From assembly GCA_964451495.1 (NCBI GenBank), contig CAYVHS010000003.1, positions 24,826 to 88,825 of the forward strand: 64,000 bases of DNA, in the 5' to 3' direction. Each line of letters begins with the position of its first letter. Position 1 is the first letter of the stretch. The stretch is from an uncultured Bdellovibrionales bacterium (GTDB lineage Bacteria > Patescibacteriota > Minisyncoccia > Moranbacterales > UBA1568). The translations under genes and the position numbers were made by a program. This document shows positions 664 through 55,741 of the stretch, in pieces. A model generated the notes under the pieces. The model was not told where the DNA came from. It saw nothing but the letters and a program-made list of their open reading frames with translations, and searched no databases.

Positions 664-675
664 ACAAAAAGGGCT

Positions 676-1053
676 CTATGCCGGGAGATTACTCTTCACT
701 TTATTGATAACTTCCTGAATTGGGATATTCGCCTTGACGAGATATTCTGCAGCTCCGAGATGGAGAACTCTCTTAATATCCTCTTCTTGGCTCAGATTGG
801 ACAATACGATGACTTTAATATCTTTCAAAACTGGATCAGACTTGAGTTCGGCCAGGGTCTCAAATCCATCCTTGCCAGGCATAATCAAATCGAGTAAAAC
901 AAGTGCTGGCTTGCGAATCCGGGCTAATTTTATAGCTTCATTGCCGTTGCCCACTATCTCGGCATGAATATTTTCTTTGGCAAGTTTTGTCTTGTAAATC
1001 TTGGAATAAAACGGGTCATCCTCCACTACCAAGACAAATTTTTCTTCGATCAT
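676..1053 (-). CDS. Single-domain response regulator (CheY-like receiver)
   Basis: 125 aa. VLVVEDDPFY..., LVLLDLIMPGKDGFETL (phospho-acceptor Asp), KVIVLSNL and a Lys near the C-terminus are canonical receiver-domain landmarks. Confidence 0.85.
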   Translation of the reverse strand: MIEEKFVLVVEDDPFYSKIYKTKLAKENIHAEIVGNGNEAIKLARIRKPALVLLDLIMPGKDGFETLAELKSDPVLKDIKVIVLSNLSQEEDIKRVLHLGAAEYLVKANIPIQEVINKVKSNLPA

Positions 1054-1106
1054 ACCAAATTAAAATTAGATATTATCAATTGTTTCTACTATAGACACGC
1101 TTCTGA

Positions 1107-3167: not shown

Positions 3168-4708
3168 TCAACCGTTCCTGTAATTTCAGATTCTGCTTCT
3201 TTAATTCAATCATTCTCAGCTCACGATCTATCATAATCTTGTTAATTTTTTCAATCTGATCAATATACTTCTGTTTCTTTTCTTCTACCAACTTGATTTC
3301 CGTGATATCGAGACAAGAACACAAGTAACCGAGGAAAGTACCTTCTGGGGAATAATGAGGAACGTTCTGCGAAAATACCCACACATATACACCATCAACA
3401 CGACGCAAACGGTATTCGCTTTTGTATGACTCATGCTTATTAAATGCCTCTTCGAATGCCCGTCGCTGACCTTTGGCATCATCTGGATGAATACTTTCCA
3501 TCCATCCCATACTCAATTGATTTTCCAGTGTCTGCCCCGTAAAATCGAGCCAAACTTTATTGAAATAAATACACTTCTTTTCCTCATCCATCACCCAAAT
3601 CATAACTGGTGCCGAATCGGCGATTGCATAGAACAATTTCTCACTTTCACGTTTCTTCGCTTCCATGTCTCGCAATGAGATGAGCATCGCATCGATACGA
3701 TTGGCGAGGCGAGAGAATTCGTCCTTTCCCGGTAGTGTAATCCGCGATTGATGTCCCGTCTCTTTACTAACTCTCTCGACCGATTCCCCAAGAGAAAAAA
3801 GTCTCCGCAATACCAGCACTTCAAAAAGACCCAGTATGACGATAACAATAAGTATGCCCACTCCGAGCAATATCTTTGTAAAAAATGCAATACTATCCTG
3901 ACCCCGTTGATAAATCGCTCGATCAAATTCTACTCGCATAACAAGAGTCTTCCCCCCATCCATATCATCCTTGATGGTATACCCTGAAACAGTCGTATCA
4001 CTTTCGCTTCTCTCTGCAATGAAAACAGTCTGGTCCTCCCCTATATACCGAGCAGCAGCAAAAGATGGGTACTGCGCAATCTCACGAAAGGGCCTCATAG
4101 TTACTGCGAAATGCGTCAGATTGGCGATTTTTGATGCCATTTCATCATCGACAAAAGTAGCAAACATGATTGTCCCTGCGCTTGGAGAGAGTCCATCGCT
4201 TGAAGTAATACTGTGAGTCACATTAATAATCACTCCATCAGAAAGAGCAATGATGCCCGAATGAGCATCCTCTCCCTCGTCATGTACCGTAAGCGCGGGA
4301 TGTGTCTGTATATAATTTTCGAAACTCTCCGAAAAAACGACTTCTTTCCCTGATCCATCGATCTGCTTCTTAAACAGAATGTCACCATTCAAATCGATAA
4401 TAACTATAAACTGTATATGGAGAAGCTCGAGCGAGATATCTTGGAGATTCACATCAATATAACTCTGATTGTGATCCTGCGCGAAAATATACGTATCGTC
4501 CCACTGTCCCCAGTCAGAAATCTTTACCGAGAGACTGTCAATCTCGTTTTGGAGGGCATCAGAAACGCGCGTCACATTCTCCTCAGCCACCTGTCGCTCT
4601 AAATCACGATAATCACTCCTCAGAACACGCGAGAGTACACCGTAGACGACGAAAAACAATATGGAAAGAATTCCAACAACAGAAAAAAGTACCTTGATGC
4701 GAAGATTC
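3136..4708 (-). CDS. Membrane PAS-domain sensor protein without a kinase domain; C-terminal coiled coil ends in a RELRMIELKK motif
   Basis: ORF 3136..4794 trimmed to ATG at 4708 (MNLRIKVLFSVVGILSILFFVV...). A TM helix, a large extracytoplasmic region, a second TM, then a PAS block (KKCIYFNKVWLDFTG...HPDD...YRLRRVDGVYVWV) and the coiled-coil tail ...IMIDRELRMIELKKQNLKLQERLSEH. It overlaps the histidine-kinase gene by 32 nt. The start codon choice is uncertain because no strong RBS is present. Confidence 0.6.
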
Positions 4709-4819
4709 ATAGTATTTTTATGTGTTTTACTTTCCCTACTCTCCTTGGCATACAGGACGAACGACATAATTATATCACAGAACCAGAAACACACTGATCA
4801 AGAGTCCGAAGCTCAGCCC

Positions 4820-37754: not shown

Positions 37755-37940
37755 ATCCTCATCCTAATGCAAAACATCATTTTTGGCTAGAGAAAAGCCT
37801 CAAAACCAGACGGAAGGGTAACTCACGCTACACACCTCTATTTGACACTCTATTTTTTCTCTGCTATTTTTGACTATCTCTCTCCCGTTATATTCCACCT
37901 TTCCGGTCCGAGATATTACCCTATTAGAAATTCTCCCGTT

Positions 37941-39092
37941 ATGTCATTTTCTCCTGTCCAGCAATTCCAAGAACTTCTCAAAAAAACCGTAGCCCCAATC
38001 ATTCTTTTACCGGCTTATCCGAGCCGAGATACCCTCGCCTCAGCTTTTGCGCTGGCGTTCTCGTTCAAGCAAATGGGCAAAGAGGCTCACATCGCTGGCG
38101 AGAATATCCTCAAAGACAAAGAGCTCGTTTCTTTCCTCGGCGAACCCGAAAACCTCCTCCCGACTATTACGGGAGCACGAGACTTTGTTCTCTCTTTCAA
38201 TACTGAACGCAACAAGATTACCAATGTCCGTTCTGAAACGATAGATAACGAGCTACGCATCTACCTCACACCAGAGCGCGGGTCTATCGACCCACGTGAT
38301 TTCTCTTTCATTCCCGCTCAATTCAAATTTGACCTCGCTATCATCATCGGAGCATCAGATAAAGAGTCTCTCGGGAAAATCTACGAGGACAACCCGGATA
38401 TCTTTTATGAAATCCCCATCATCAACATCGACAACCATCCCGATAACGAACTCTACGGGCAGATCAATCTCGTCGATATTACCGCTTCATCCAACGCAGA
38501 GATTCTCTCTGAAACATTCGAAAAAACTTTCCCAAATGTTCTCGATGAACGCGTCAGCGAAAGCCTGCTCACTGGCATCATCGCCGCAACCGAAAGTTTC
38601 CAGAAAAAAAATACGACTCCACAAGCACTTCAAATAGCCTCTCGGCTCATGGATCATGGTGCCGACCAACAGAAAATTGTTCGCTCTCTCTACAAAACAC
38701 AACCACTCCACCTTCTCAAACTCTGGGGACGCGTCATGGCCCAAGCCAAATGGAACGAAGAACTCAAGCTCATCTGGGCGCTTGTTTCTCTCGAGGATCT
38801 CATCCAGTCCCGTGCCCGCGTCGAGGATCTACCAGCTGTCCTAGAAAAAATCCACAGCAATTATTCCTCGGCCAACTACTTCATGATTCTTTCTCCAGAA
38901 ACTAATTCTCAGATAGGCGGTATCATCAAGTCTACATCAGCAGACAATCTTTCCCGTGTCTCCGAACGCATTGGTCATGGGGAAATCCAAGGAGATATCT
39001 TCCGATTCTCTCTGTCAGCCAATAGTCTCGACGAAGCAGAAGAACACGTCATCGCTCTGCTACAAAAAACCACTCCCCTAGTCTCAAAGTAA
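37941..39092 (+). CDS. DHH/DHHA1-like (NrnA-like) protein with degenerate catalytic motifs
   Basis: ORF trimmed to MSFSPVQQ... It has an overall NrnA-like layout, but the DHH motif appears as IDNHPDN and the N-terminal DxD motif as PSRD. Confidence 0.55.
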   Translation: MSFSPVQQFQELLKKTVAPIILLPAYPSRDTLASAFALAFSFKQMGKEAHIAGENILKDKELVSFLGEPENLLPTITGARDFVLSFNTERNKITNVRSETIDNELRIYLTPERGSIDPRDFSFIPAQFKFDLAIIIGASDKESLGKIYEDNPDIFYEIPIINIDNHPDNELYGQINLVDITASSNAEILSETFEKTFPNVLDERVSESLLTGIIAATESFQKKNTTPQALQIASRLMDHGADQQKIVRSLYKTQPLHLLKLWGRVMAQAKWNEELKLIWALVSLEDLIQSRARVEDLPAVLEKIHSNYSSANYFMILSPETNSQIGGIIKSTSADNLSRVSERIGHGEIQGDIFRFSLSANSLDEAEEHVIALLQKTTPLVSK

Positions 39093-39218
39093 TCTCTTCA
39101 AAAAAGACATCTCCACCCCGAAACAAGGGTGGTTTTTCTTTGCTCAGAAAGAGCTCTTTGGAGTACAATGATGGAGTAAGAAGAAAAACGGAACCCCGTA
39201 AACAAAAACATCACTCGT

Positions 39219-42200
39219 ATGGTCAAGATTACTCACGGAGACATATCGCCCTCTGATGAAAAAAACAAACAAGCAGATGATCTCCTCCAAAAAATGCGCT
39301 CCGTCTCTATCGAAGAGACGGCTTCACGGTTGGCAGGCATGTGCGGTCTCCCTTATATTGATCTCGCTCTTTTCCCCGTTGAAGAAGAAAGCCTTTCGCT
39401 TATCAACGAGGCCGATGCGAGGCATCTAGGATTGGCTCTTTTCCAAAAAAAATCTACCAGGGCGAGCTTTGCCATCCTTGATCCAAACAACAAGGAAACT
39501 CTAGAATTTATCACAAAAGTCGCCCAAGAAAGGGGCTGGGAAGTAGAACTCTATGTCGTTTCGATACCGGCTCTCGAGGCAGCGTGGAAGACTTATTCCA
39601 AACATACGTTTATTGATAGCCTCGATCTCGTCCGCGTTTCACTCAAAGGCGATGATCTCGAAACATTTGATAAAAATTTTGGAGAACTTCTAGAATTAAA
39701 AGAAAATCATCGACTTAATACTTCTCGAGCCACAGAAATTATTCTCGCTGGAGCCAAGAAGCTTGACGCGAGTGATATTCATATCGAACCAGAAGAAGAG
39801 AGGGCTCGCCTGCGCTATCGTATCGATGGCGTACTCCAAGATATCGGCATGCTCCCGCTCGCCGTGTACCGACTCCTCCTGTCTCGTATCAAAATGATAG
39901 GCAAGATGCGCCTCAACGTCAGAGATAGAGCTCAGGATGGTCACTTCTTCGTCAATCTCGATGAAAAGCGCATCGATATCCGCGTCAACAGCATCCCCGG
40001 CAAATACGGCGAAAGCATCAACATGCGTCTTCTCTCAAGCGATGATGTTATTGCTGATATCGACAGTCTCGGTCTACGTGGTCTGGCCCGTGAAGAAATC
40101 CTCAAAGAAGTCGAGCGGCCTCACGGCATGATCCTCAATACCGGCCCGACCGGGTCTGGAAAAACAACTACTCTCTACACGCTCCTCCATCACATCAATC
40201 GTCCCGGGACAAAGATTATTACGGTCGAGGATCCAATCGAATATTCATTGCCCGGTATCGTCCAGACAGAAGTGTCCAAAGACAAATCATACACATTTGC
40301 TACCGCGCTCCGTGCCATCGTCCGTCAAGATCCAGATGTTCTCCTCGTCGGAGAAATCCGTGATGACGAAACTGCTGATATTGCCGTCAATGCCGCCCTC
40401 ACTGGGCATCTCGTCCTCTCAACGCTCCATGCTAATGGCGCTCCCGCTGCTGTTCCACGACTTATCGAGCTCGGTGTCAAACCATCGCTCATCACCGCCT
40501 CACTCAATATCATCATCGCTCAGCGCCTCGTCCGCGTGCTGTGTAAAAAATGTCGCACATCATACGAGCCAGCCAAATCGACATTCGATGTCATCACCAA
40601 GCTCATCACTATCATCTCTCCGAAAGCAAACGTGACACTGCCCAAAAAGATCGATGTCCTCTGGAAGGCCACGGGGTGCGCGGAATGCCACTTTACCGGC
40701 TACAAAGGACGTATCGGCATCTTCGAGATATTCTCTCTCTCCAAAGAAATCATCGAGATCATCAACAACATGGGTAATGAGCGTGAGATTCTCAAGGCCG
40801 CTCTCGAAGGCGGTATGGTCACCATGACACAAGACGGAATCCTCAAAACACTCGAGGGAATTACGACGCTCGATGAAATCTGGCGCGTCACCGACCAAGT
40901 AGATATGCTCAAAGAAATCTTCCTCGAACTCATGTCTGGTGATCTGCAGCGCACGCTCTTCATTCCAGAGAATCTCTCTTCTGATGTAGCGAAACACCTC
41001 TCTTCGCTCACCGAATTCTCACGCTATGCCAATACTATCGATTCACAGTTACGGTTTCAATCGATTTTCTCTGCGGCTATCGTCTCACGCGCTGGCGATA
41101 TCCATATCGAACCAGGAAACGAAACGTTCAGCGTCCGATTCCGCATCGATGGCATTCTTCAGAACGCTGCCACGTTTCCGATAAATGACTACCCGAGTCT
41201 CATCAGTGAGATAAAGACGCTCGTCGGACTCAAGATCGGTGAACGAGCTGGGGTGACCGATAAGCGTTTCTCTGTCACTCTCGAAAAGTCTCCCGATGCC
41301 GGCGTAAGCGAGAGGATAGATATCCGCCTCTCCCTTATCCCTGGAGGATTCGGCGAGACCATCGTTATGCGACTCCTCAATCAATCAGCCACAACGCTTG
41401 ATCTAGAAACACTCGATATCCGCAAACAAAACATCGAAAAAATTCTCGCCTCTATAAAAAAACCACACGGTATCATCCTTAATACTGGTCCTACTGGATC
41501 TGGAAAAACGACGACGCTCTACAGCACTCTCTCGCTACTCAATAAACCTGAAGTGAAAATCATCACCGTCGAAGATCCAATCGAATATCAGATGCAAGGT
41601 GTCCTCCAGACTCAAGTAAACGAAGCCGAGGGGTACACGTTCTCGACTGCTCTCCGCTCTCTCCTCCGTCAAAACCCAGATATCCTCATGATTGGCGAAA
41701 TCCGCGATGATGAGACAGCACAAATCGCCATCCAATCCGCCAATACGGGGCACCTCGTCCTCTCGACGCTCCATACCAATTCTGCAGCCGGCACCATTCC
41801 TCGTCTCATGAAAATGGGCGTTTCTGGTGATGACCTCGCCAATGCCGGAGGATCACTCATCGCGCAGCGACTCGTCCGCAGACTCTGCAAAGAATGCAAG
41901 GAATTGGCGCCTCTATCAGATGAGGATGCCCAGAAGATTACACAAACCCTCGCATCTCTTTCAGAAAAAGCAGGTGTCACTCTACCCACAGACAAACAGA
42001 CAGCATGGATACACAAAGGCTGCCCTGTCTGCCATGGCACCGGCTATTCCGGCCAACTAGTCCTCTCCGAAGTGATTCCGCTCGATAATGATATCAAAGA
42101 CCTCATCGCCAGAGGAGCCCTCACTCACGAGATCGAAGAAAAAGCTCTCGAAAATGGGATGATCACCATCGCGCAAGATGGTGTGCTCGCAGTACTCGAG

Positions 42201-42245
42201 GGACGCACCACTCTCGAGGAAGTAAAGCGCGTAACTGATTTCTAA
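39219..42245 (+). CDS. GspE/PilB-family secretion ATPase with two tandem complete ATPase cores (1008 aa)
   Basis: An N-terminal GSPII_E_N-like domain, then two repeats each with ASDIHIEP...RIDGVLQ, Walker A LNTGPTGSGKTTTLY, Asp box, Walker B/His box (LVGEIRD...LVLSTLH) and a tetra-Cys motif (CKKC...CAEC and CKEC...CPVC). Confidence 0.85.
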   Translation: MVKITHGDISPSDEKNKQADDLLQKMRSVSIEETASRLAGMCGLPYIDLALFPVEEESLSLINEADARHLGLALFQKKSTRASFAILDPNNKETLEFITKVAQERGWEVELYVVSIPALEAAWKTYSKHTFIDSLDLVRVSLKGDDLETFDKNFGELLELKENHRLNTSRATEIILAGAKKLDASDIHIEPEEERARLRYRIDGVLQDIGMLPLAVYRLLLSRIKMIGKMRLNVRDRAQDGHFFVNLDEKRIDIRVNSIPGKYGESINMRLLSSDDVIADIDSLGLRGLAREEILKEVERPHGMILNTGPTGSGKTTTLYTLLHHINRPGTKIITVEDPIEYSLPGIVQTEVSKDKSYTFATALRAIVRQDPDVLLVGEIRDDETADIAVNAALTGHLVLSTLHANGAPAAVPRLIELGVKPSLITASLNIIIAQRLVRVLCKKCRTSYEPAKSTFDVITKLITIISPKANVTLPKKIDVLWKATGCAECHFTGYKGRIGIFEIFSLSKEIIEIINNMGNEREILKAALEGGMVTMTQDGILKTLEGITTLDEIWRVTDQVDMLKEIFLELMSGDLQRTLFIPENLSSDVAKHLSSLTEFSRYANTIDSQLRFQSIFSAAIVSRAGDIHIEPGNETFSVRFRIDGILQNAATFPINDYPSLISEIKTLVGLKIGERAGVTDKRFSVTLEKSPDAGVSERIDIRLSLIPGGFGETIVMRLLNQSATTLDLETLDIRKQNIEKILASIKKPHGIILNTGPTGSGKTTTLYSTLSLLNKPEVKIITVEDPIEYQMQGVLQTQVNEAEGYTFSTALRSLLRQNPDILMIGEIRDDETAQIAIQSANTGHLVLSTLHTNSAAGTIPRLMKMGVSGDDLANAGGSLIAQRLVRRLCKECKELAPLSDEDAQKITQTLASLSEKAGVTLPTDKQTAWIHKGCPVCHGTGYSGQLVLSEVIPLDNDIKDLIARGALTHEIEEKALENGMITIAQDGVLAVLEGRTTLEEVKRVTDF

Positions 42246-42260
42246 ACTACTATAAAAAAC

Positions 42261-42290
42261 AAAAAAAGACTTCCTAGGAAGTCTTTTTTC
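42261..42290 (+). terminator. Intrinsic (bidirectional-capable) terminator after the GspE gene
   Basis: aaaaaaagacttcctaggaagtcttttttc, a 20-nt self-complementary core with flanking A- and T-runs. Confidence 0.7.
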
Positions 42291-42299
42291 TCATCTTTC

Positions 42300-42480
42300 T
42301 GCTTCACCTGTAGACAAACCTCAAGCATAGGAGCTCGCGGAAAGGAACAGCGTCGAGGTATAGCGCAGCCGAAACCACCCTACCCGATCTTGACAGACAG
42401 TTCCCGTGATTGAGGACAAAAGATAGGAGTCCCCAATTGTCTACATGTGAAGCAGCCCTAAAAGCTAGGGGTTCTTTTTT
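42300..42480 (+). ncRNA. Candidate structured small RNA (~180 nt) closed by a 17-bp terminal stem and ending in an intrinsic terminator; identity unresolved (SRP-RNA-like or 6S-like long hairpin)
   Basis: The 5' arm gcttcacctgtagacaa (42301..42317) pairs with ttgtctacatgtgaagc (42436..42452) with 1 mismatch. Nested internal pairings exist (cctcaa/ttgagg, ggaac/gttcc). The 3' end has ccctaaaagctaggg + gttctttttt (42453..42480). The element is wedged between two terminators and 150 nt upstream of ruvB, so it is not a simple 5'UTR. Confidence 0.35.
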
Positions 42481-42635
42481 AAAACGACCCTTGATAATAG
42501 CATGGCTTTGTTTATTTGTCAAGAGGTGTTACAATATAGATACAGAGGTCTTACTTCTTCCTTTATTTGAGCCTATAATAACACAAGGACCGCTGTGTCT
42601 ATGTGACCGTATAACCGAAACTTTCACCCACTTGT

Positions 42636-46127: not shown

Positions 46128-46784
46128 ATGCAATACCATCCGCTTATCACTTTTTTTGTCGAGCAAGGACTCCCGCTCCAGACGGTCACTCTTCTCCTCA
46201 TGCTGCCTATAGTCGCGACCTTAGTGGCATTCTTCCGTCAGGTGATCGGCATCAAAGCCTTTGGGATCTATACCCCCTCCATCATCACGTTCGCGCTCGT
46301 CGCTTTTGACCCGAATGGCCTCAAATACGGCATCACAATTTTTATTAGTGTTATTTTGGTGGGGATGGTGTCGCGTTTCATCCTTCAAAAGTTTCGTTTG
46401 CTCTATCTACCACGGGTGGCCATCACTCTTTCTATTGTCTCATTAGCTGTGCTCGGTATCTTGGCAATCGGGGGGGTTTTCCATCGGACAGGACTGGCTG
46501 GCATCGATATTTTCCCGCTCCTTATCATGATTACTTTGGTTGAAAAATTTGTAGCGACTCAAATCGAAAAAGGGAGTCGCGTTGCATTCATACTCGCTAT
46601 CGAAACATTGGTTATTTCTATCGCGGGCTACTTTCTGATACGATGGACTGCCCTAACGTCTCTTATCCTTCACTACCCCTGGGCTATTCTTCCTACCTTC
46701 CTCATCAATTTTTCCCTCGGAAAATGGGACGGTCTCCGTGTCACAGAATATATTCGTTTCCGAAAAATTTTTCGCTACATGTAG
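46128..46784 (+). CDS. Polytopic (6-7 TM) membrane protein, first gene of the ATP-grasp module
   Basis: 218 aa, essentially all TM helices. It sits immediately upstream of two ATP-grasp genes on the same strand. Confidence 0.55.
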   Translation: MQYHPLITFFVEQGLPLQTVTLLLMLPIVATLVAFFRQVIGIKAFGIYTPSIITFALVAFDPNGLKYGITIFISVILVGMVSRFILQKFRLLYLPRVAITLSIVSLAVLGILAIGGVFHRTGLAGIDIFPLLIMITLVEKFVATQIEKGSRVAFILAIETLVISIAGYFLIRWTALTSLILHYPWAILPTFLINFSLGKWDGLRVTEYIRFRKIFRYM

Positions 46785-46815
46785 GCCTCTTCTCTTTGTT
46801 TTTTGACTCTTCCTT

Positions 46816-48213
46816 ATGTTTGAATTTTTCAGGAAAAGCAGTGGGTTGCTCGGCATGAATGCGAGGAATCTCAATTATATTCGCCCCTACAACCGCACGC
46901 GCAGCCGTGAAATAGCGGATAACAAACTTCTCTGTAAACGAATTTTACAGAAAAATGGCCTCGGTGTATCAGCACTGGTGGCCAAAATCCGCACCTACGA
47001 AGAGCTTGACCACTTTGACTGGGCCAGTCTCCCTGATAGCTTTGCACTCAAACCCAATCGTGGTTTTGGAGGCGAAGGCATCCTGGTTGTGTATGCTCGA
47101 AAAAAAAATCGTCCTGATGCTTGGGTCAAGGCCGATGGTTCTATCATAACTATCGAAGATATCAGAAACCATATTCGTAACATCATCGATGGCTCTTTCT
47201 CTCTCAATAACACTCCGGATATCGCTTTTTTTGAAGAACGTCTCAAACTCTCTAAATTTCTCAAGCCCTACACATACAAGGGCATTCCTGATATCCGTGT
47301 TATTATTTTCAATCGTGTCCCTGTCATGGCTATGCTTCGTCTCCCCACGCGTGCTTCTGATGGCAAGGCCAATCTCCAGCAAGGGGCTATCGGCGTAGGT
47401 ATTGATATGGCTACCGGCACGACTACCACCGCCATCTTGGGCAAGGGTCATATCATCGAATATGTTCCCGATACGCGCCTCATTCTCTCTGGTATTAAAA
47501 TTCCCTACTGGAAAGATATCCTCCGCATGTCCATTCAAGCCCAAGAACTTTCTGGATTGGGCTTTCTCGGGGCGGATATTGCTATCGATCGCGAACGAGG
47601 GCCAGTCATCCTCGAGCTCAATGCCAGGCCAGGACTCTCGATCCAGCTCGCCAACCTCTCTGGACTCAAAGAAAGACTCAAGCGTGTCTCTGGGCTCAAA
47701 ATAAAGACATCTGAACGGGGCATGCGAGTCGGCATGAATCTCTTCGGTGGTGAAATCGAAGAAGAAATCGAGGGACTCTCCGGGAAACGAGTCATCGGTA
47801 CTATCGAAAAAGTAAAACTTATCGGCAAAGACGGTGTAGAAATTGAAGTTAACGCCAAAATTGATACCGGCGCCGACTCAACATCTATCGATACCGAACT
47901 CGCCAAAGCACTCGGGTTTGAAAAAACTTTGGAACTTTTTTCCGAAAGAATTACGCCTTATGAAGATATCCTTAGTGAGCTTGTCAAAGAAAAACGAGAA
48001 CGCTTGTTCTCCGATATCCCTGACTTAGCAGACACCGTACCCGTCAAATCCTCCCATGGATATTCCTACCGGCCAAAAATCCTTGTCACGCTCACGATGG
48101 ACATGATAACCTTGCCAGCAAAAGTATCGGTTATCGATCGATCCCATCTCGAATATCAAGTAATTATCGGCCGCAAACATCTCAGAAAATTTCTTGTTGA
48201 TGTAAGTAAATAA
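46816..48213 (+). CDS. ATP-grasp amidoligase (alpha-L-glutamate-ligase-related type) fused to a C-terminal retropepsin-like aspartyl peptidase domain
   Basis: 465 aa. The N-terminus has GMNARNLNYIRPYNR ... ALKPNRGFGGEGILVVY ... VILELNARPGLSIQLAN (ATP-grasp). The C-terminus has VIGTIEKVKLIGKDGVEIEVNAKIDTGADSTSID (DTGA active-site motif of the RimK-associated retropepsin-like fold). Confidence 0.7.
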   Translation: MFEFFRKSSGLLGMNARNLNYIRPYNRTRSREIADNKLLCKRILQKNGLGVSALVAKIRTYEELDHFDWASLPDSFALKPNRGFGGEGILVVYARKKNRPDAWVKADGSIITIEDIRNHIRNIIDGSFSLNNTPDIAFFEERLKLSKFLKPYTYKGIPDIRVIIFNRVPVMAMLRLPTRASDGKANLQQGAIGVGIDMATGTTTTAILGKGHIIEYVPDTRLILSGIKIPYWKDILRMSIQAQELSGLGFLGADIAIDRERGPVILELNARPGLSIQLANLSGLKERLKRVSGLKIKTSERGMRVGMNLFGGEIEEEIEGLSGKRVIGTIEKVKLIGKDGVEIEVNAKIDTGADSTSIDTELAKALGFEKTLELFSERITPYEDILSELVKEKRERLFSDIPDLADTVPVKSSHGYSYRPKILVTLTMDMITLPAKVSVIDRSHLEYQVIIGRKHLRKFLVDVSK

Positions 48214-48225
48214 CTCTACCCTACT

Positions 48226-49230
48226 ATGAACATAAGCGACATTCACGAATACACGCAACACGGGGGGGTCCGCTCTCTTTTGAAACGCGCCATCGAGTGT
48301 GGCATCCGCGTCTCCGCTCTTCCTGGAGCAACTCGTCTCACGCGATTCGACTACGCAGATAAGATTTTTTTTCTCAAAGGCGCCAATGCTCCCGTCATGC
48401 GAAGGATGGGCAATTTTACCAGAGACAAAAACCTCACTAAAACTCTTCTCGAGGCTATCGGGGTCCGAACACCACGCGGCATCGTCGCGAGCTCTGTAAA
48501 AGATGCTTTGGAGCTGATTAAAACACAAGAGCTCTCATTCCCTCTTATCCTAAAACCGACGCATGGGTCGAGGGCACTGGGGGTAACATGGGATATACGT
48601 TCTGAAAAAAACCTTCGGGGAGCTTTTGCTCATTTTCAAGTTATCAGCAAAAAAAATGATTTTAAGAAAATTACCTTTCTGGTCGAAGAAATGTTCATTG
48701 GCAATGAATACCGCGTACTCGTTCTAAATGACAAAGTCATCTCCTGCGTGGAAAAGGTGCCAGCAACCGTCATCGGCGATGGAGAATCATCAACACAAGC
48801 CCTCATCGATGCATTCAACAAGACTCGCCTTTTAGGATTCAAAATCCGTGTCGATGCCATCGTTAAAAACACTCTCAAAGCGAAGGGGTTAACACTCAAA
48901 TCAATCCTTCCTCATAATTATGTTCTGCGGCTCAGAAATAATCTCAACATGTCTGATGGAGGCCGATCCATCGACAGGACAGCGGCTATCCACCAGTCAT
49001 TCAAAGACCTCTGTGTCAAAGCGACAGAGATTACCGGCCTTACTTTTGCTGGTGTTGATGTTATCGCAAAAGATATTTCTACATCAGCCAAGCAAGGCTC
49101 TTATGTTATCCTCGAACTCAATCCAAATCCATATTACAACATGAATGAAAAACCCCTCGTAGAAGGCAAAGGGGTCGATGTCTCACTCCTCCTCCTGAAA
49201 AATATCTTTCCGTCGCTCAAGAAGAATTAG
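48226..49230 (+). CDS. ATP-grasp family ligase (RimK / cyanophycin-synthetase-N-terminal-like)
   Basis: 334 aa. LTKTLLEAIGVRTPRG...FPLILKPTHGSRALGV...YRVLVLNDKVISCVEK...YVILELNPNPYYNMNE fits an ATP-grasp fold. Confidence 0.7.
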   Translation: MNISDIHEYTQHGGVRSLLKRAIECGIRVSALPGATRLTRFDYADKIFFLKGANAPVMRRMGNFTRDKNLTKTLLEAIGVRTPRGIVASSVKDALELIKTQELSFPLILKPTHGSRALGVTWDIRSEKNLRGAFAHFQVISKKNDFKKITFLVEEMFIGNEYRVLVLNDKVISCVEKVPATVIGDGESSTQALIDAFNKTRLLGFKIRVDAIVKNTLKAKGLTLKSILPHNYVLRLRNNLNMSDGGRSIDRTAAIHQSFKDLCVKATEITGLTFAGVDVIAKDISTSAKQGSYVILELNPNPYYNMNEKPLVEGKGVDVSLLLLKNIFPSLKKN

Positions 49231-49344: not shown

Positions 49345-52008
49345 TTAGGGGGTGGTCACAGTAATGCTCTTCTGGTCGCTCACTTTGTTCCCATTATCAT
49401 CTTCCACTTCCACTTTAACCGAAAGAGAAGACTTGTCCGATGGAACGGAGTAACTCACAGAATATGATTCTGATTCGCCTGAACCAACCTCGGATCCCTC
49501 GACAGAGTACTTCACACTTTTTACTCCATAGGGGGCATCAATATTAGCACGGAGAGTAATAGAGGATGATGCCTCCGCGCTCCCTGGCACAGAGAGACTC
49601 ACTTCTGGCATATTCCCCTTAAAATCACTTGCCTTACAATCATCCCTCGGTGGAGCCGCCATGGTTTTAGACCCTTTCTTCTGACTCTTATACCAATCCT
49701 TTACCCCCTCTTCCCAATTTTTATACTGGGAATTACTCTCTGGCTTATCTGGAATTGGCCCGCGCGGATCGTCTGTCGACACATAATGCAAGATATCATG
49801 CGGGCTGATAAAATCTTTCTTTTCCGTATCGCTATCCGAACAATATTTATTAGCGAGACAATAGGTATTTTTTTCGCCAGGAATTTTACAAACTTTCAAA
49901 TTCTCCTCTTTCTCAAGTTTTCCAGCGAGCATAGGTTTATTGGTTTTACCATCACCGTCACCGATCTCATCATCAGGATTATATTTCGGAAATTCTTCAA
50001 CCGCATAATTTGCTAACGCCTTATCAAGAAACGCCCGCCAGATGGGCGCGGCAACATTCACACCATCCGCTCCCGCTATCATAGACGAGTTATCATTATT
50101 CCCCGCCCACACACCAACAGCGAGTGATGGAGTATACCCAATAGTCCATCCGTCTCGGAATTCATTTGTGGTGCCCGTCTTCGCTGCCACAGGACGATTG
50201 TCGAATCGAAGTGGACTATTCTCACCAAATACCCACGCACGATTATCATTGTTCGAAAGAATTGAATCGAGCATTGCTACATACTTTTCATCCACAACAC
50301 GCTCACCAGCATCTACCTTGAACTCTTCGAGCACTCCACCCTTAGCATCCTCAATCTTAAGAACAGAGGCTCCACTCCGTTTAATTCCACCTGTCGCAAG
50401 TGTACTAAAGGCGTTTACATGATCGAGAAGCTTCACATCCCCACCACCGAGCACAAGTGAGAGCCCTAATTGATCCAAATTATTCAAACCAGAAATTCCC
50501 AGGTTCTTAGCTAGAGTGACGGCGTCTTTTACACCGACAAGGTACAACATCTTCACAGCGGGTACATTAAGCGATCCACCGAGCGCCTTCATCACTGATA
50601 CGGGCCCATGAAACTCCCCCGTATAGTTCTGGGGTTCATAGCTTTTTCCTTCTGCGGTCTCAAACTGCGTCTTCACATCATAGAGCATCGTTTCTGGTAA
50701 ATACCCTTTCGTAAAAGCCGATAGATACACATATGGCTTAAATGATGATCCTGGTTGCTGAAGAGATGTGGCCACATTGAAGTTTGGTTCAAATACACAA
50801 GATTTTCCAGAAACACAATTGGCTGGCTCTGGTGTACCAAAATAATCCTTGGATCCAACCATAGCGAGGATCTGTCCAGTTTTCGGATCCATCGCGACCA
50901 GCGCAGCATTCGCTGATTTCCACTTCTTATTTTTTTCCACTCCTTCACGCACTGCCTGCTCAGCAGCCTGCTGTTTATCCCAATCAAGCGTAGTCGTCAC
51001 TTTGAAACCACTCTGTTCCACCGCCTGGTCTCCATACTTCTGCTGTAAATAATCCTTAATAAACATGACAAAATGCGGCGCAGCAATGATATTTTTTTGT
51101 GGTTGAATCTTGTCGAGTGTATTAGTATCCAAAGCCTCATTTGCTTGATCTTCAGAGATATACCCCAGACTCTTCATTTGCTTCAAAGCAAAGGCTTTGC
51201 GACCAATAAGGGCATCGCGATGAGACCCATAGGGAGAATAATACGCCGTGGCCTGAGGAAGGGCCGCGATAAGGGCCGCTTCATCTAGAGAGAGTTCCCG
51301 AGCTGGCTTACCAAAAAAAGTCTGTGCAGCAGCTTCTACACCATATGCATTTGACCCATAAGGAATTTCATTGAGATACATTGCCAAGATTTCATCTTTG
51401 GAAAACTTTGTTTCCATCTCGAGCGAAAGAATTACTTCTTTGATTTTTCTCGTCAAAGTCTTTTCATTCGAGAGAAGTGAGTTTTTCACAAACTGCTGAG
51501 TAATAGTCGATCCACCCTGCGCTTTACCAAATTGTGTAATATCTTTGAATATAGAACGAGCGATTGAGGTGAGTTTAATACCATGATGTGAATAAAAATC
51601 CTGGTCCTCGAGACTAATTGTGGCATATTTCACAACATCAGGCATATCTGAAAACGGTATAATAGTGCGCTTCTCCTCTCCATGTACTTCATATAGAAGA
51701 TGCACTCCAGTTCGATCGTATATTTTCGTTGATTCTGGTATGAAACGAGTATTGACACTCCCTGGACTTGGAAGATCTTTAGCAAAAAATGCAAAAACAC
51801 CAATAATTACAATAATACCCACAAAAGAAAGACTAAGCATCCCTTTCCAAAGAAGGGGCCAAATTTTATTTTTCTGCTTTGTTTCCGGAAGAAATCTCCG
51901 CTTTTTAAGAAGAAATGCCATAAAAATACCAAAAGGATACACACTCATTATACACCATACAAAAGCCACCTCACACAAAACACCCCCTTCCCTTGTTTTT
52001 ATTATCAA
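49345..52008 (-). CDS. Class A penicillin-binding protein (transglycosylase + transpeptidase) with a C-terminal Ser-rich repeat extension
   Basis: 887 aa. GT51 motifs (EDQDFYSHHGI, GGSTITQQ), a transpeptidase SxxK (SSFKPYVYL) and KTGT. The start may be an internal Met. Confidence 0.85.
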   Translation of the reverse strand: MIIKTREGGVLCEVAFVWCIMSVYPFGIFMAFLLKKRRFLPETKQKNKIWPLLWKGMLSLSFVGIIVIIGVFAFFAKDLPSPGSVNTRFIPESTKIYDRTGVHLLYEVHGEEKRTIIPFSDMPDVVKYATISLEDQDFYSHHGIKLTSIARSIFKDITQFGKAQGGSTITQQFVKNSLLSNEKTLTRKIKEVILSLEMETKFSKDEILAMYLNEIPYGSNAYGVEAAAQTFFGKPARELSLDEAALIAALPQATAYYSPYGSHRDALIGRKAFALKQMKSLGYISEDQANEALDTNTLDKIQPQKNIIAAPHFVMFIKDYLQQKYGDQAVEQSGFKVTTTLDWDKQQAAEQAVREGVEKNKKWKSANAALVAMDPKTGQILAMVGSKDYFGTPEPANCVSGKSCVFEPNFNVATSLQQPGSSFKPYVYLSAFTKGYLPETMLYDVKTQFETAEGKSYEPQNYTGEFHGPVSVMKALGGSLNVPAVKMLYLVGVKDAVTLAKNLGISGLNNLDQLGLSLVLGGGDVKLLDHVNAFSTLATGGIKRSGASVLKIEDAKGGVLEEFKVDAGERVVDEKYVAMLDSILSNNDNRAWVFGENSPLRFDNRPVAAKTGTTNEFRDGWTIGYTPSLAVGVWAGNNDNSSMIAGADGVNVAAPIWRAFLDKALANYAVEEFPKYNPDDEIGDGDGKTNKPMLAGKLEKEENLKVCKIPGEKNTYCLANKYCSDSDTEKKDFISPHDILHYVSTDDPRGPIPDKPESNSQYKNWEEGVKDWYKSQKKGSKTMAAPPRDDCKASDFKGNMPEVSLSVPGSAEASSSITLRANIDAPYGVKSVKYSVEGSEVGSGESESYSVSYSVPSDKSSLSVKVEVEDDNGNKVSDQKSITVTTP

Positions 52009-52074
52009 ACCCTACCTAATCATGCGAAGGAGGGTGGATAATGACCACCATCTCAACTCGAGGTGTATACCGTG

Positions 52075-52362
52075 CTATTGAGAAATTTTCACCTCCACCA
52101 CACCTTCACATCCCAGTACAGTATTAATTCTTTCTCGTATACGGTCTCTTTGGAGCCAGACTTCACTCGACCACAAAGAACTCCTCGGTGTTAAAAACAG
52201 TTTTTTCTCTTTATAGAAGCTCGGTATAATATTTTCTCCTCCACGCACACCATATTCCTCAATCAAAACCCGCTTACAGACATAAAAAACTGTCTTCTCA
52301 TCAAGAACTTCTGGGTTAAGAACTGTTTTCTTTAGAGGAAGGAGCTCTTTTAATGTCCGCAT
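52075..52362 (-). CDS. DUF721 (DciA-like) protein
   Basis: 95 aa. ...LFLTPRSSLWSSEVWLQRDRIRERINTVLG...VVEVKI matches the DUF721 pattern. It is positioned next to dnaN as in many genomes. Confidence 0.6.
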   Translation of the reverse strand: MRTLKELLPLKKTVLNPEVLDEKTVFYVCKRVLIEEYGVRGGENIIPSFYKEKKLFLTPRSSLWSSEVWLQRDRIRERINTVLGCEGVVEVKISQ

Positions 52363-52559
52363 ACCCAGTAATGAAACTTCGACAATATTCTCTTTGTTAT
52401 TGTCGATAATTAAGCTAATATATTATTTATCAACTTCTTTTTTCATATCACTCAAGCACTCATCAAAGTTCTACTACTGGACATATTTCTATTACTACAC
52501 AAAGTGAAAATATATATTCACTTTTGAGCAAATACTTGTAAAATCAGTTAAACAAACCA

Positions 52560-53708
52560 TTATTTCTTGATTGGCATTATAATATAAAGATATTCATTTT
52601 GAACACTATTATTTTTACTAACCATTTTCAGCGCGGCGGGAGTTGTCCCTGTATTCGCACAAAAAAGCATCTTTTCACTTGAAAGAGCATTCACCCCCTC
52701 TAAAACATACCGTGGATTAAATACTATTCTAAGCGGCGTCGCTTCTTGTAAAAATTCTCCCTCAAGCACAGTTTTATTCTCACCTATCTCTTGTGATGAA
52801 GAGGTGACTGTACAGGATTTTGCTTGTGGATCAAAAGAAAGAGTGATTTCATTAGCATCATACGAAGAAAAAGCACTCGCTATTTTTATTGCTCGCTGAA
52901 AGGCCTCTTTATTAAAAACACATTGCAAAGAAAAAGATTGTGGAATTATCTGCTTATAATCAGGATATTTTCCATTAATTACACGTGAAATTATCTGCAC
53001 TCCATCAATTTCAAAAAAAATCTGATTTTCTTCAAGCGCAATCTTTACCTCATTACTCTCAGGGGTAATAACACGATTAATCTCCTGTAATGTACCACTT
53101 GGAAGAATAAGTGATGGATTCTGCTCTAAAAAGTCTTCATATCGGCTCTTATGTTCTAAAAATGGAATCACTTCTTCCGCAAGACGAAAACTATCTGTTG
53201 CTGCTAAATGAAGAGCATCTTTTAAAAAGAATATATTTACTCCAGTTAATTCAAGACGAGCCTCATTTAAACTCACACAAAATAAAAGCCTAGAAAGAGC
53301 GCTTTTTAATTCTTGAGCTGGGAAAGAAAATAAATATTCCTTTTTATATTGTGGAATAATAGGAAAATCCTTTCCATCTAAGCCTTTTATCCTCATTTGA
53401 TGAGAAGTGCTTGATATTTTTAATGTTTGATTATCAGATTCAAGCTCTAAAACATCACCACTAGGAAGATTATGGATAAAATTACTCAATAATTTAGCTG
53501 GGATAGCAATTTTCCCTTCCTTTTCTATTTTTGCCCCTATATATGATATAACACCAATTTCTAGATTTGTTGCAGAAAGTTTTAATCTTCCATTTTCTGT
53601 TTCTAGAAGAAAGTTACTTAGAATAGGTAGTGTAGATTGTTTTCCTACTACTCGCTCGAGATATGTGAGGGATTTTGCAAGATTTTCTTGGGTACAAATA
53701 AGTTTCAT
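52560..53708 (-). CDS. dnaN: DNA polymerase III beta sliding clamp
   Basis: 382 aa. MKLICTQENLAKSLTYLERVVGKQSTLPILSNFLLETENGRLKLSATNLEIGV. Confidence 0.9.
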   Translation of the reverse strand: MKLICTQENLAKSLTYLERVVGKQSTLPILSNFLLETENGRLKLSATNLEIGVISYIGAKIEKEGKIAIPAKLLSNFIHNLPSGDVLELESDNQTLKISSTSHQMRIKGLDGKDFPIIPQYKKEYLFSFPAQELKSALSRLLFCVSLNEARLELTGVNIFFLKDALHLAATDSFRLAEEVIPFLEHKSRYEDFLEQNPSLILPSGTLQEINRVITPESNEVKIALEENQIFFEIDGVQIISRVINGKYPDYKQIIPQSFSLQCVFNKEAFQRAIKIASAFSSYDANEITLSFDPQAKSCTVTSSSQEIGENKTVLEGEFLQEATPLRIVFNPRYVLEGVNALSSEKMLFCANTGTTPAALKMVSKNNSVQNEYLYIIMPIKK

Positions 53709-53992
53709 AGAAATATAGTGATGAATAAACCCACTCTTAGTAATAGAATCTTTTTTTTAAAAAATATAAATACTTTTATTATGATTAGTGTGGTGGATAT
53801 CTGGATAAGTTCTATTTTTGTTTTAGGAGGGGCCTTAAAAGAGAATAAGCTTTTGTATAAAAAAGAGCAAATGTGTTTATTTTGAGTATAATTTTAAAGG
53901 AGAATTTTTGTTTGGGGTTTTATTCACTAAATATGTTTTTCTATACAGTGTTTATTAACCATATTTCTCGACTTATACAGACTTATACAGGG
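53709..53992. other. dnaA-dnaN intergenic AT-rich region with DnaA-box-like sites and a 10-bp tandem repeat (candidate oriC element/DUE)
   Basis: gtgtggtggatatctggataagttc contains two TGGATA(A)-core boxes. acttatacag occurs twice in tandem at 53961..53980. The region is very AT-rich. Confidence 0.4.
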
Positions 53993-55399
53993 TTAGTTGT
54001 AATAGAGACGCTCTTTTAATGTAGAGAGCTCTTCTTTGAGTCGTATATTTGTTTCTTTCCCCTTATTTATTTTTTCAAAAGCATGGAGGGTGGTGGTGTG
54101 ATCGCGGCCGCCGAGAATTTCTCCGATAGTAGAAAATGGAGTTTGAAGTTCGCTACGGAGTATAAACATCATTACTTGGCGGGGATGGGAAATTTCCTTT
54201 TTCCGACCCTTTTTGAGGAGATCTTCTCTTGTCACGGTATAAAACTCCATAATAACTCGGAATATATCATCTACCTGGAGTGTTTTTTTGTTGTTTTCAA
54301 TGAGTTGAGAAAGAATTTTTTCAGTATTTTCAATTGTGGGAGGTATTTTATGGAATTCACAAAAGGCAATAACTCTATTAAGGGCCCCTTCAAGTTCGCG
54401 AATATTTTGTGAGATATTTTCTGCGATATAGCGAATGGACGGGGTGTCTATATGAAAACCCTTTTCAGTAATTTTTGCCTCAAGGATGGCGATTCTTGTT
54501 TCAACATTAGGACGGCTAATGTCGGTGATCATACCCCCTTCAAAACGTGAACGGAGACGTTCTTCTAGGGTGGGAATCGCTTTGGGAGGGCGGTCGCTTG
54601 ATATAACTATTTGTTTATTGAGCTGGTAGAGAGCGTTAAATATGTGGAAGAATTCGTTTTGGGTCTTTTCTCGGCCAGAAAGAAATTGAATATCATCAAT
54701 AATGAGGAGATCCATCTGTTGGTAGTATTCTTTAAATTTATCAATCTTCTGATTTTTAATAGAATCAACCAGTTCTGTGGTAAATCGCTCAGAATTAATA
54801 TATTTTATGCGTTTTTCTGGGGAGTTCTTCATCACTTCATTCCCAATAGATTGGAGGAGATGAGTTTTTCCGAGGCCTACTCCTCCATAAATAAAGAGTG
54901 GGTTATAAGCCATTCCAAGATTTTGTGAAACAGCAAAGCAGGCAGCTTTCGCTAACTCGTTATTTTCAGCAACGATAAAATTTTCAAATGTGTAGCGATT
55001 GTTAAGGTTTGTTTCATGGAAAATAGGTGTAGAGGGAGCCGCTGCGGTAAAAAATGGCTTTTCTATAATCTTTTTTCTAACAAAACCGTTTGTTGATGGG
55101 GCTTGGACGGCGTCAATATTTTTTATAGAATCAACTGTTTGAGTGGTGGGTTTTTCTGGAGAAATGATGCATCGAATCTCTTGAATTTCTGGATGAAAGC
55201 CCTTGAGTGCTTTAAGAATATAGATATTATACTTGTTTTCAAGCCACTCTTTGGCAAATCCATTTGGTACTCCAATAGTGACACTATTGTCTTGGTTACT
55301 CAAAATACTGGTATTTTTAAACCAGGTAATGAAGTTTGCTTTGGAGATAGAGAGTTCGATTTGGCCCAAAACAGCCCTCCATAACTCGTCGTTTGTCAT
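53993..55399 (-). CDS. dnaA: Chromosomal replication initiator DnaA
   Basis: 468 aa. Walker A GGVGLGKTHLLQ, LLIDDIQFLSG (box VII region), and a C-terminal DNA-binding domain ...HTTTLHAFEKI. Confidence 0.95.
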   Translation of the reverse strand: MTNDELWRAVLGQIELSISKANFITWFKNTSILSNQDNSVTIGVPNGFAKEWLENKYNIYILKALKGFHPEIQEIRCIISPEKPTTQTVDSIKNIDAVQAPSTNGFVRKKIIEKPFFTAAAPSTPIFHETNLNNRYTFENFIVAENNELAKAACFAVSQNLGMAYNPLFIYGGVGLGKTHLLQSIGNEVMKNSPEKRIKYINSERFTTELVDSIKNQKIDKFKEYYQQMDLLIIDDIQFLSGREKTQNEFFHIFNALYQLNKQIVISSDRPPKAIPTLEERLRSRFEGGMITDISRPNVETRIAILEAKITEKGFHIDTPSIRYIAENISQNIRELEGALNRVIAFCEFHKIPPTIENTEKILSQLIENNKKTLQVDDIFRVIMEFYTVTREDLLKKGRKKEISHPRQVMMFILRSELQTPFSTIGEILGGRDHTTTLHAFEKINKGKETNIRLKEELSTLKERLYYN

Positions 55400-55741
55400 A
55401 AGGGGAGAAAGGTTATCAACAATGAAACTTATTATAGCACGTGAAAAAAGAAGATACGAGTAAAAAAAGAAACAAAGTGGATAAATGGTGTATAAGTATC
55501 GAATATCCTTTAAAAACTAACTGTTACTCTTGCTAAAAACAAAGAAGTCGGCTATACTACTCTAAAGCTTCAAAGGGTTAATTGGATAACACAATTGAAT
55601 AGGGGATGTTATAATTCCTTTTCTGTTCTCTGTTTTTCCAAAACACCTTTTAAAACGGTGTTTTTCTTTATTTGAAGCCAAAAACAGTGCCACTCTAATT
55701 TATTAAACGCGGATAGGCATGGCCGCAGAATAGTATATATT
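55400..55741. other. dnaA/rpsA divergent intergenic region with DnaA-box-like sequences (candidate oriC / dnaA promoter region)
   Basis: TTATCAACA (55403..55411), TTATCCACT as reverse complement (55467..55475), TGGATAA core at 55574..55581. A hairpin aaaacaccttttaaaacggtgttttt lies at 55630..55656. Confidence 0.4.

Follow-up and report, generated by a model that had tools for sequence, protein, structure and literature searches.

The window analysed here, 64,000 nucleotides of contig CAYVHS010000003.1 (assembly GCA_964451495.1, positions 24,826 to 88,825 of the forward strand), derives from an uncultured bacterium placed by GTDB in the Moranbacterales of the Patescibacteriota. It contains a gene for a PilB-type ATPase in which two complete motor modules, here called M1 and M2, are joined in one chain, and which is referred to below as the tandem ATPase. 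Each module comprises an N2 domain and a C-terminal domain (CTD) with the ATPase core. The gene, a single open reading frame (ORF), and its parts are as follows.

39219-42245, plus strand: tandem PilB-type ATPase gene, single ORF with ATG start, 1008 aa plus stop; Pfam T2SSE twice and MshEN
39345-39572, plus strand: N1 or MshEN-like domain, residues 43-118, one per chain (PF05157, 27.1 bits)
39729-40088, plus strand: N2 domain of M1, residues 171-290, with ASDIHIEP and the RxRIDG arginines (hmmsearch envelopes, motifs)
40089-40898, plus strand: CTD ATPase core of M1, residues 291-560; Walker A at 40143-40166, Walker B GEIRD at 40350-40364, Zn cysteines at 40542-40688
40899-41051, plus strand: inter-module linker, residues 561-611, about 51 aa in every tandem homolog
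41052-41432, plus strand: N2 domain of M2, residues 612-738, with AGDIHIEP, RxRIDG and a 7-aa insertion (alignment, motifs)
41433-42242, plus strand: CTD ATPase core of M2, residues 739-1008; Walker A at 41487-41510, Walker B GEIRD at 41694-41708, Zn cysteines at 41886-42032

The chain is laid out as N1-[N2-CTD]-linker-[N2-CTD], with module boundaries at residues 171-560 and 612-1008 according to hmmsearch. The Pfam family T2SSE (PF00437) matches in two stretches with 743.7 bits (cutoff 24.9). The initial annotation had proposed that an N-terminal GSPII_E_N-like domain is kept, and this is borne out by the MshEN match above its cutoff of 23.1 bits, which covers the distal part of the domain only. 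The complete internal duplication claimed at the same time is likewise real. Aligned with each other by BLASTP (residues 150-580 against 581-1008), residues from about 175 to 560 and from about 616 to 1007 are 47% identical over 392 aa (E=1e-124), and each named motif recurs at the expected spacing: xxDIHIEP at 185-191 and 626-632 (ASDIHIEP in the first half, AGDIHIEP in the second), RxRIDG at 199-204 and 640-645, the Walker A motif GPTGSGKTTT at 309-318 and 757-766, the Asp box VEDPIEY at 336-342 and 784-790, the Walker B motif GEIRDDET at 378-385 and 826-833, the His box TGHLVLSTLH at 395-404 and 843-852, and the CxxC...CxxC cysteines C442/C445/C487/C490 and C890/C893/C935/C938. The two module-coding DNA stretches are only about 70% identical, which marks the duplication as ancient. 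In an AlphaFold2 (AF2) model of the full chain (mean predicted local distance difference test, pLDDT, of 81; predicted template modelling score, pTM, of 0.53) the linker is mainly helical, and pLDDT falls below 50 at residues 571-577 only.

A search of 5.8 billion proteins, clustered from NCBI, JGI, ENA and Logan assemblies, recovered more than 120 clusters that share this architecture of about 1006 aa (about 1004-1010 aa) at 54-99% identity to the tandem ATPase; among the matches listed, 117 of 120 clusters are 1000-1049 aa long. The named relatives are Candidatus Moranbacteria/Moraniibacteriota or Patescibacteria, and their proteins are publicly annotated as 'GspE/PulE family protein' or 'PilB'. 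In a scan of GTDB with one genome per species, about 33 species representatives carry two modules separated by a constant linker of about 51 aa, down to 38% identity. Two other contigs, one of 99.7 kb from NCBI and one of 35 kb from Logan, also encode the exact protein, and the gene is intact in all 118 relatives that were aligned. The description of the architecture as unusual for its family is justified as well: when 1.84 billion 50%-identity representatives were searched exhaustively with HMMER (E<=1e-30), about 13 of tandem length turned up among 15,089 PilB-like clusters, and the design is therefore rare. The tandem two-module design is real, conserved and rare. We found no published description of it in open-access text, that is, in the accessible text of sources including a 2024 PilB review and a paper on the evolution of the TFF superfamily, nor in that of a Saccharibacteria type IV pilus (T4P) paper surveying 868 Patescibacteria genomes.

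Each half of the tandem ATPase scores best against PilB of Geobacter and Myxococcus among PDB sequences (289-344 bits), followed by GspE (280-305 bits); the Thermus PilF core also ranks after PilB, and PilT and PilU reach about 83-116 bits. The first half aligns to full-length Geobacter PilB including N1, the second to N2 and CTD only. The modules are 39-43% identical to solved PilB/PilF cores, and their AF2 models superpose on the PilB/PilF core with template modelling scores of 0.88-0.91 in Foldseek, a search that found no tandem chain in the PDB. Both modules contain all four superfamily motifs (Walker A, Asp box, Walker B, His box) and also the Zn tetracysteine insert in the CTD, which is absent from PilT and whose eight cysteines are all invariant in an alignment of 67 sequences. 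Methionine 1 is likewise invariant, which supports the start of the gene.

Scores of the NCBIfam models have to be read with the duplication in mind. The PilB model TIGR02538 gives 852 bits summed over two stretches, an average of about 426 per module (cutoff 675.65), and the PilB and GspE equivalog cutoffs are exceeded only through the sum of two modules. For PilT (TIGR01420) the two stretches yield 324 bits, about 160 per module (cutoff 319), and for ComGA (NF041000) 471.8 bits, about 236 per module (cutoff 300), with no com genes nearby; TfpB reaches 705 bits over two stretches, below its cutoff of 850. PilT and PilU proteins have about 350 aa and neither N1 nor the Zn insert, whereas the tandem ATPase has both; from PilB and GspE, with one module per chain of about 560 aa, it differs in having two modules in 1008 aa. 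Each module, taken by itself, passes as a member of the PilB/GspE subfamily in its motifs, its Zn insert and its closest solved relatives. A fusion of PilB with PilT is ruled out by the Zn insert and the PilB-type scores of both halves. The c-di-GMP-binding motif of the MshE type is a tandem RLGxx(L/V/I)(L/V/I)xxG(L/V/I)(L/V/I)xxxxLxxxLxxQ at the extreme N-terminus. It was not found in the N1 consensus of the family, MVKVx10Kx3Tx3LxKMRxxSIEExASxLAxxxGLPYIDL.

The catalytic residues are intact in both halves, in this protein as in the family. Invariant in M1 are K315, E337, D338, E341, E379, H397, H404, C442, C445, C487 and C490, and in M2 K763, E785, D786, E789, E827, H845, H852, C890, C893, C935 and C938. 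In an alignment of 118 sequences, little or no variation is seen in either module at the Walker A lysine and threonine, the Asp-box acids, the Walker B glutamate, the two His-box histidines, the N2 arginines of RxRIDG and DxRxS...R and the four cysteines. The conserved N2 arginines are R199, R201, R255 and R270 in M1, where H242 stands in place of the canonical QDGR arginine, and R640, R642, R683, R703 and R718 in M2. Mean pairwise identity is 0.67 for M1 and 0.61 for M2, compared to 0.37 for the poorly conserved linker and 0.42 for N1, and the same residue occurs in both modules at 92 of the 97 aligned positions that are conserved to at least 90% in both. Both modules have kept the complete catalytic apparatus under long-term constraint, and both look active. 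A degenerate half, in which catalytic residues would be missing, is ruled out for this clade, since the motifs are invariant in both modules; partial erosion occurs in a few distant lineages only. There the N2 arginine motif of M2 is lost (P0132) or partly lost (P0130 and P0128), or the Zn cysteines of M2 are lost (P0129), while P-loop, Walker B and His box of M2 are still intact in all four.

Some differences between the modules are fixed, and these fall at canonical positions. His242 is fixed in M1, whereas the corresponding position is Arg (QDGR) in 47/47 canonical PilBs and 33/33 second or third modules of the tree alignment. In M2, Asn819 replaces the canonical Asp of RQDPD, and position 708, a Pro in canonical PilB, is usually Leu. 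Eighteen positions, mostly in the C-terminal/Zn subdomain (residues 449-543), are conserved in M1 only and four in M2 only, a disparity that indicates, as far as residue conservation goes, a mild subfunctionalisation of the two modules.

To place the halves, a neighbour-joining tree was built from 116 modules (383 columns, 100 bootstraps), including 47 canonical single PilBs from within and outside the candidate phyla radiation (CPR). All tandem modules, together with the single-module protein of locus L039, form a clade with 100% bootstrap support apart from the 47 canonical PilBs; the halves had been regarded as paralogous in the initial annotation. Second modules are monophyletic (72%), and the first modules of one synteny group, A, are so with 99%. 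This topology indicates a single ancient duplication, which would have taken place in a paralog already distinct from canonical PilB. The single-module member (L039:3417-5120, 567 aa) groups with the first modules of the other synteny group, B (96%), and shares the group-B gene neighbourhood of Translin, metallophosphoesterase and UvrA genes; on these grounds a secondary loss of M2 is probable.

P0005 (1460 aa; L001:10001-14383 on a 77-kb JGI contig, with TsaE and DHH genes upstream) is a relative with three modules. Each of them keeps an intact set of motifs (Walker A, Asp box, Walker B, His box), while a simple CxxC search shows both cysteine pairs in the middle module only. Its modules 2 and 3 share only 58% protein and 68% DNA identity, which rules out an artefact. 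The neighbour-joining tree places these two as simple sisters, a relationship that we refined by a sliding-window comparison in which module 2 is chimeric: its N2 domain is of the M2 type (0.70-0.75 identity to module 3 vs about 0.30 to module 1), and its C-terminal subdomain of the M1 type (0.60-0.67 to module 1 vs about 0.40 to module 3). Such an M2(5')::M1(3') chimera is a signature of unequal crossing-over, implying that P0005 arose by exchange between M2 and M1 of a two-module ancestor. An independent architecture unrelated to the tandem clade is found in P0148 (L089:8001-11144, GCA_964384625.1; also L090), a single cluster member present in two assemblies. It combines two soluble PilC-type Cyto domains (T2SSF) with two T2SSE modules. 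The second of these modules is intact, whereas in the first the P-loop is dead (GPTGSGTT) and the Asp box altered. The P0148 gene lies downstream of an ECF sigma/anti-sigma pair.

The neighbourhood of the tandem gene offers no pilus genes. The gene order is RuvA, FemAB, Mur ligase, HolA, DUF3048, Fpg, PolA and TsaE, all on the minus strand, followed on the plus strand by a DHH-like gene, the tandem ATPase, RuvB, bPH_2, YebC and RuvC. The features immediately around the gene are these.

37842-39092, plus strand: DHH/NrnA-like upstream neighbour, 416 aa by longest ORF (NCBIfam NrnA 38 bits, cutoff 350)
39113-39132, plus strand: terminator-like hairpin separating the DHH-like ORF from the ATPase gene (consensus scan only)
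42262-42289, plus strand: terminator-like hairpin, 17 nt past the ATPase stop (consensus scan only)

Hairpins on both sides suggest that the tandem gene may form a monocistronic unit. The gap of about 390 bp between the ATPase and ruvB genes (42246-42635), of similar length in L002, holds terminator-like hairpins and a strong promoter-like match on the minus strand (42522-42494, 11/12). Rfam detects two tRNAs only in the window, and nothing near the tandem gene or in this gap.

The upstream neighbour had been called a degenerate DHH-family protein, and this characterisation stands: it is a 38-bit relative of NrnA whose catalytic motifs have changed from DGD to SRD and from DHH to DNH. None of its orthologs has a canonical DHH motif (DNH, DCH, DHR or DHK instead), and motif I is lost in the subclade of the window. 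Its TTG start at 37842 may lie too far upstream, as annotated starts of relatives give 373-384 aa. The protein is possibly a pseudoenzyme partner of the tandem ATPase, or the pair just reflects conserved gene order. The order TsaE (minus), DHH-like (plus), ATPase (plus) is kept in closer group-A relatives (at least 51% identity) and at the three-module locus, where the downstream genes differ. Group-B tandem genes (38-43% identity) lie between an unrelated gene of about 330 aa and Translin, metallophosphoesterase and UvrA genes. At L024:4770-10814 and other group-B loci the ATPase gene is tightly flanked, with upstream gaps of 4-92 bp; the upstream gene of about 330 aa is unannotated there, its counterpart at L039 weakly matches NIF3/DUF34, and a Translin-family gene and a YfcE-like metallophosphoesterase gene lie downstream. 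A dedicated partner gene shared by both groups was sought and rejected, the upstream genes of groups A and B not being homologous (hhalign probability about 0).

No pilC, pilM or pilin gene was detected in the 64-kb window by Pfam or a prepilin-motif scan, nor is one adjacent to the tandem gene at group-B loci. The initial annotation is thus right that these genes are not adjacent, with the refinement that the same replicon has, at a distance of about 39 kb, a full T4P operon. Its edge is visible in the window, where the second, single-core PilB that had been noted is indeed present.

1-672, minus strand: N-terminal 224 aa of a canonical single-module PilB, running off the window (Pfam MshEN and start of T2SSE)

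This fragment lies downstream of genes for a CHASE4-PAS protein, a PAS-histidine kinase and a receiver protein (1-4794, minus strand), and differs by eye at three of 224 aa (about 99% identical) from an intact 566-aa PilB at L091, which belongs to the same lineage. By walking left from the receiver gene in L091, the operon is reached at L091:10391-16474; it consists of pilB (566 aa, intact in L091 and L092), pilC (350 aa), four prepilin-like ORFs, a 283-aa ORF and a major-pilin-like gene, and Pfam finds neither pilT nor pilM in it. The core of this canonical PilB is 41-44% identical to the tandem modules and, in a motif search, has one CxxC pair only vs two per tandem module. Because the operon is intact in the same lineage and has its own PilB, the organism has a regulated canonical T4P operon and, about 39 kb away, a separate orphan tandem motor.

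In some relatives the canonical gene is interrupted. At L084 (8001-10755) and L085 pilB has a single in-frame TGA after Walker A and pilC is frameshifted; at L087 (6617-8298) and L088 pilB is frameshifted in a GGGGG tract, where G6 would restore the frame; and at L086 (6433-7305) it is truncated at 290 aa and followed by unrelated sequence. All 26 of 26 database homologs of the N-terminal PilB fragment are at most 382 aa long. These interruptions could reflect pseudogenisation, phase variation or recoding. A general decay of canonical pilB in the clade was considered in view of the lesions in three relatives and rejected, the gene being intact at 566 aa in the window's own lineage.

Published models describe PilB, GspE and PilT motors as homohexamers cycling through C2 (CCOCCO) or C3 (OCOCOC) states, coupled to a platform protein that has been proposed to be a dimer or a trimer (PMC6858323, PMC10790770). 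PilT/VirB11-like ATPases are seen as hexamers of rigid packing units, each made of the N2 domain of chain n and the CTD of chain n+1, connected by flexible linkers; all PilB structures are of the C2 'CCOCCO' type, and PilC is modelled as being turned in 60-degree steps (PMC6858323). In the PulF3:PulE6 model, six alternating Cyto1 and Cyto2 domains of a trimeric platform each bind one N2 domain, at a ratio of 6:3 (PMC10790770).

On this background we interpret the tandem ATPase as a PilB paralog specific to Moranbacteria-type Patescibacteria/CPR, duplicated in tandem, three chains of which would close a single PilB-like ring where M1 and M2 follow each other alternately, six modules in all. The initial annotation had already envisaged a pseudo-hexameric trimer or a ring with functionally different subunits. 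With a single N1 per chain, the putative ring would have three N1 domains and not six. The ring would bind to a platform of the PilC/GspF type and, hydrolysing ATP in M1 as well as in M2, drive the assembly of a type IV filament, either an adhesive pilus or a DNA-uptake pseudopilus, so that the tandem ATPase would act as a second motor beside canonical PilB, comparable to PilB and TfpB in Acinetobacter. We give this explanation as a whole, including the status as a clade-specific paralog, slightly better than an even chance; ring and partner are what we infer, whereas the tandem design itself is solid and conserved.

A more specific version, which we put forward tentatively as a possibility, is a single six-site ring (three two-module or two three-module chains) in which the N2 domains of M1 and M2 co-evolve and each is specialised for one Cyto domain of PilC, giving a 3x(2:2) stoichiometry. 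The alternating, non-identical N2 domains would fit the alternating Cyto1 and Cyto2 of the proposed trimeric platform. Hints in favour of the filament-motor interpretation are that both modules are catalytically intact, that linker length does not vary, that a three-module variant exists (the module numbers seen, two and three, are both divisors of six), that P0148 is fused to Cyto domains, and that an intact pilB-pilC-prepilin operon, lacking pilT, is present as partner machinery about 39 kb away. The paired extension motors of Acinetobacter and the engineered linked ring ATPases described below serve as precedents.

Several observations weigh against this interpretation. In neither synteny group does the tandem gene adjoin pilC, pilM or a pilin gene; the neighbours are DNA replication and repair genes, and no dedicated partner gene is shared. 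A single module, with about 426 bits on average, stays below the NCBIfam PilB equivalog cutoff of 675. In the AF2 models (pTM 0.53 for the full chain and 0.60 for the segment CTD(M1)-linker-N2(M2), in which a rigid 'stapled packing unit' of CTD(M1) and N2(M2) was sought) the hinge at 571-577 is disordered and the relative placement of the modules is not confidently predicted. Erosion of N2 arginines or Zn cysteines in M2 of a few distant tandem lineages means that equal activity of the modules is not universal. Finally, a strict matching to Cyto1 and Cyto2 does not fit a three-module chain, and the three-module and T2SSF-fused examples are single sequences.

Comparison with known systems sets the interpretation in context. 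With PilB (Geobacter metallireducens 5TSG/5TSH/6OLJ; Thermus PilF core 5IT5/5OIU) the tandem ATPase shares the fold of N2 domain and CTD, the motifs, the N2 arginines and the Zn insert in each module, but it has two motor modules per chain (three in one relative) with only one N1, forms a separate clade (100% bootstrap), is encoded by an orphan gene not beside pilC or pilM, and carries module-specific substitutions at canonical positions (H242 in M1, N819 in M2). GspE/EpsE (1P9R, 4KSR, 4PHT) score nearly equally to both halves and have the same motifs and Zn site; the tandem ATPase differs in its duplication, in lacking a type II secretion context (no GspL, GspF or GspD) and in its monoderm-like CPR host. 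Acinetobacter baylyi, where two extension motors act on one machine, likewise combines a canonical PilB and a diverged PilB-type paralog in one cell (PMC8213720), although TfpB is a separate single-module protein and not internally duplicated. The geometry proposed here, in which covalent dimers close a six-site ring, is that of engineered linked dimers of the ring ATPase Msp1, which form active pseudohexameric trimers (PMC12793716). Those, however, are artificial AAA+ constructs of identical or point-mutated subunits, whereas the tandem ATPase is a natural PilT/VirB11-like pair at 47% identity, for which the ring is what we infer.

In a natural motor of this kind, subunits that have diverged one by one are covalently linked in pairs or triplets, which limits the symmetries and subunit registers that can work; it could serve as a test of how six-part ring motors function. 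Site-specific mutations can be placed in 'every second subunit' with no need for engineered constructs, and the motor may reveal which N2 surface contacts which platform domain. A 3x(2:2) stoichiometry of motor and platform, if true, would tell C2 rotary models of type IV filament motors apart from C3 alternating ones. Within the CPR, the family is conserved in one branch, Moranbacteria-type Parcubacteria and relatives. Type IV pili have a central role in the episymbiotic way of life and in the DNA acquisition of these bacteria, and an extra motor therefore bears on how such ultra-small cells attach to or feed from hosts.

The two modules could instead form a stacked double ring of six chains, an M1 hexamer on an M2 hexamer, of which the M1 ring alone touches the platform. 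Type II AAA+ proteins (p97, ClpB/Hsp104, NSF) also have two ATPase cassettes per chain, D1 and D2, from internal duplication, and the cassettes of p97 and Hsp104 stack; a linker that is helical apart from a short flexible part suits stacking too, and the 18 positions conserved only in M1, as opposed to four in M2, could mark a stacking surface or contacts with partners of M1. Yet type II AAA+ proteins are of another kind than the RecA-type, PilT/VirB11-like tandem ATPase, and there is no evidence of stacking for PilB-like modules: no PilT/VirB11-like ATPase is known to stack in the PDB survey of PMC6858323, and the PDB holds no tandem chain. The N2 domain of M2, moreover, keeps all arginine motifs and is conserved about as well as that of M1 (mean column conservation 0.70 vs 0.74), which would be unexpected if it made no platform contact, and a three-module relative would need three stacked rings. 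We therefore consider a stacked arrangement unlikely.

An improbable alternative of similar standing leaves the fold as it is and changes the job: the tandem ATPase would serve DNA transactions (uptake or translocation, support of recombination) and not adhesive pili. The neighbours invite this thought, with RuvA, HolA, Fpg, PolA, TsaE, the DHH/NrnA-like gene, RuvB, YebC and RuvC in group A and the Translin-family, metallophosphoesterase and UvrA genes in group B; the T4P locus of Saccharibacteria likewise adjoins recAX (PMC12206443), and T4P-like machines drive DNA uptake in many bacteria (PMC8213720). However, the terminator-like hairpins that flank the gene speak against its being co-transcribed with the neighbours, groups A and B have different flanking genes, with upstream genes that are not homologous, and adjacency is weak evidence in the compact, housekeeping-dense genomes of the CPR. 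All PilB-specific features, N1 and Zn insert included, are kept, and the motor of a DNA-uptake pseudopilus is in any case a sub-case of the filament motor favoured here.

Slightly less credible still is a ring with three working and three allosteric sites, in which one module is a regulatory or structural pseudo-subunit that binds nucleotide without turnover. The fixed module-specific changes at canonical positions (His242 in M1; Asn819 and usually Leu708 in M2), the distant M2 modules without N2 arginines or Zn cysteines, and the dead P-loop in the first module of the independent tandem P0148 are in line with such a division of labour. In a site that no longer hydrolyses ATP, however, the invariance of the Walker A lysine, the Asp-box acids, the Walker B glutamate and both His-box histidines across 118 sequences would be unexpected, and it extends to both modules.

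An artefact, be it a mis-joined gene pair, as the initial annotation had cautioned, with a stop lost by sequencing or assembly error between neighbouring pilB-like genes, or a collapsed or expanded repeat, is ruled out for practical purposes: tandem paralogs are in principle prone to misassembly, but no other support was found, and the same ORF with its stop-free linker recurs in four source collections, more than 120 clusters and about 33 species representatives down to 38% identity, the exact protein lies on two further contigs, and the modules, at about 70% DNA identity, are too diverged for an assembler to have collapsed or created the repeat.

Some MAGs (metagenome-assembled genomes) with the tandem gene are labelled Bdellovibrionales, Pseudobdellovibrionaceae, Gammaproteobacteria or Saccharibacteria (TPA/binchicken: L004, L005, L014, L016, L026, L031 and others); as they share the Moranbacteria-type synteny, these labels are probably taxonomic mislabels. 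Elsewhere in the window, dnaN (52560-53708) and dnaA (53993-55399), both on the minus strand, coincide with a fall in GC content to 33% (52-54 kb) and a change in the sign of GC skew near 54 kb; the region 52000-55400, which lies about 10-13 kb from the tandem ATPase, probably represents the replication origin. At 46128-49230 on the plus strand, genes for a 7TM_transglut membrane protein, an ATPgrasp_ST and Zn-protease-like protein and RimK-like ATP-grasp ligases form a conserved cluster that is also syntenic in L002, and its composition suggests a peptide or amino-acid ligation system.

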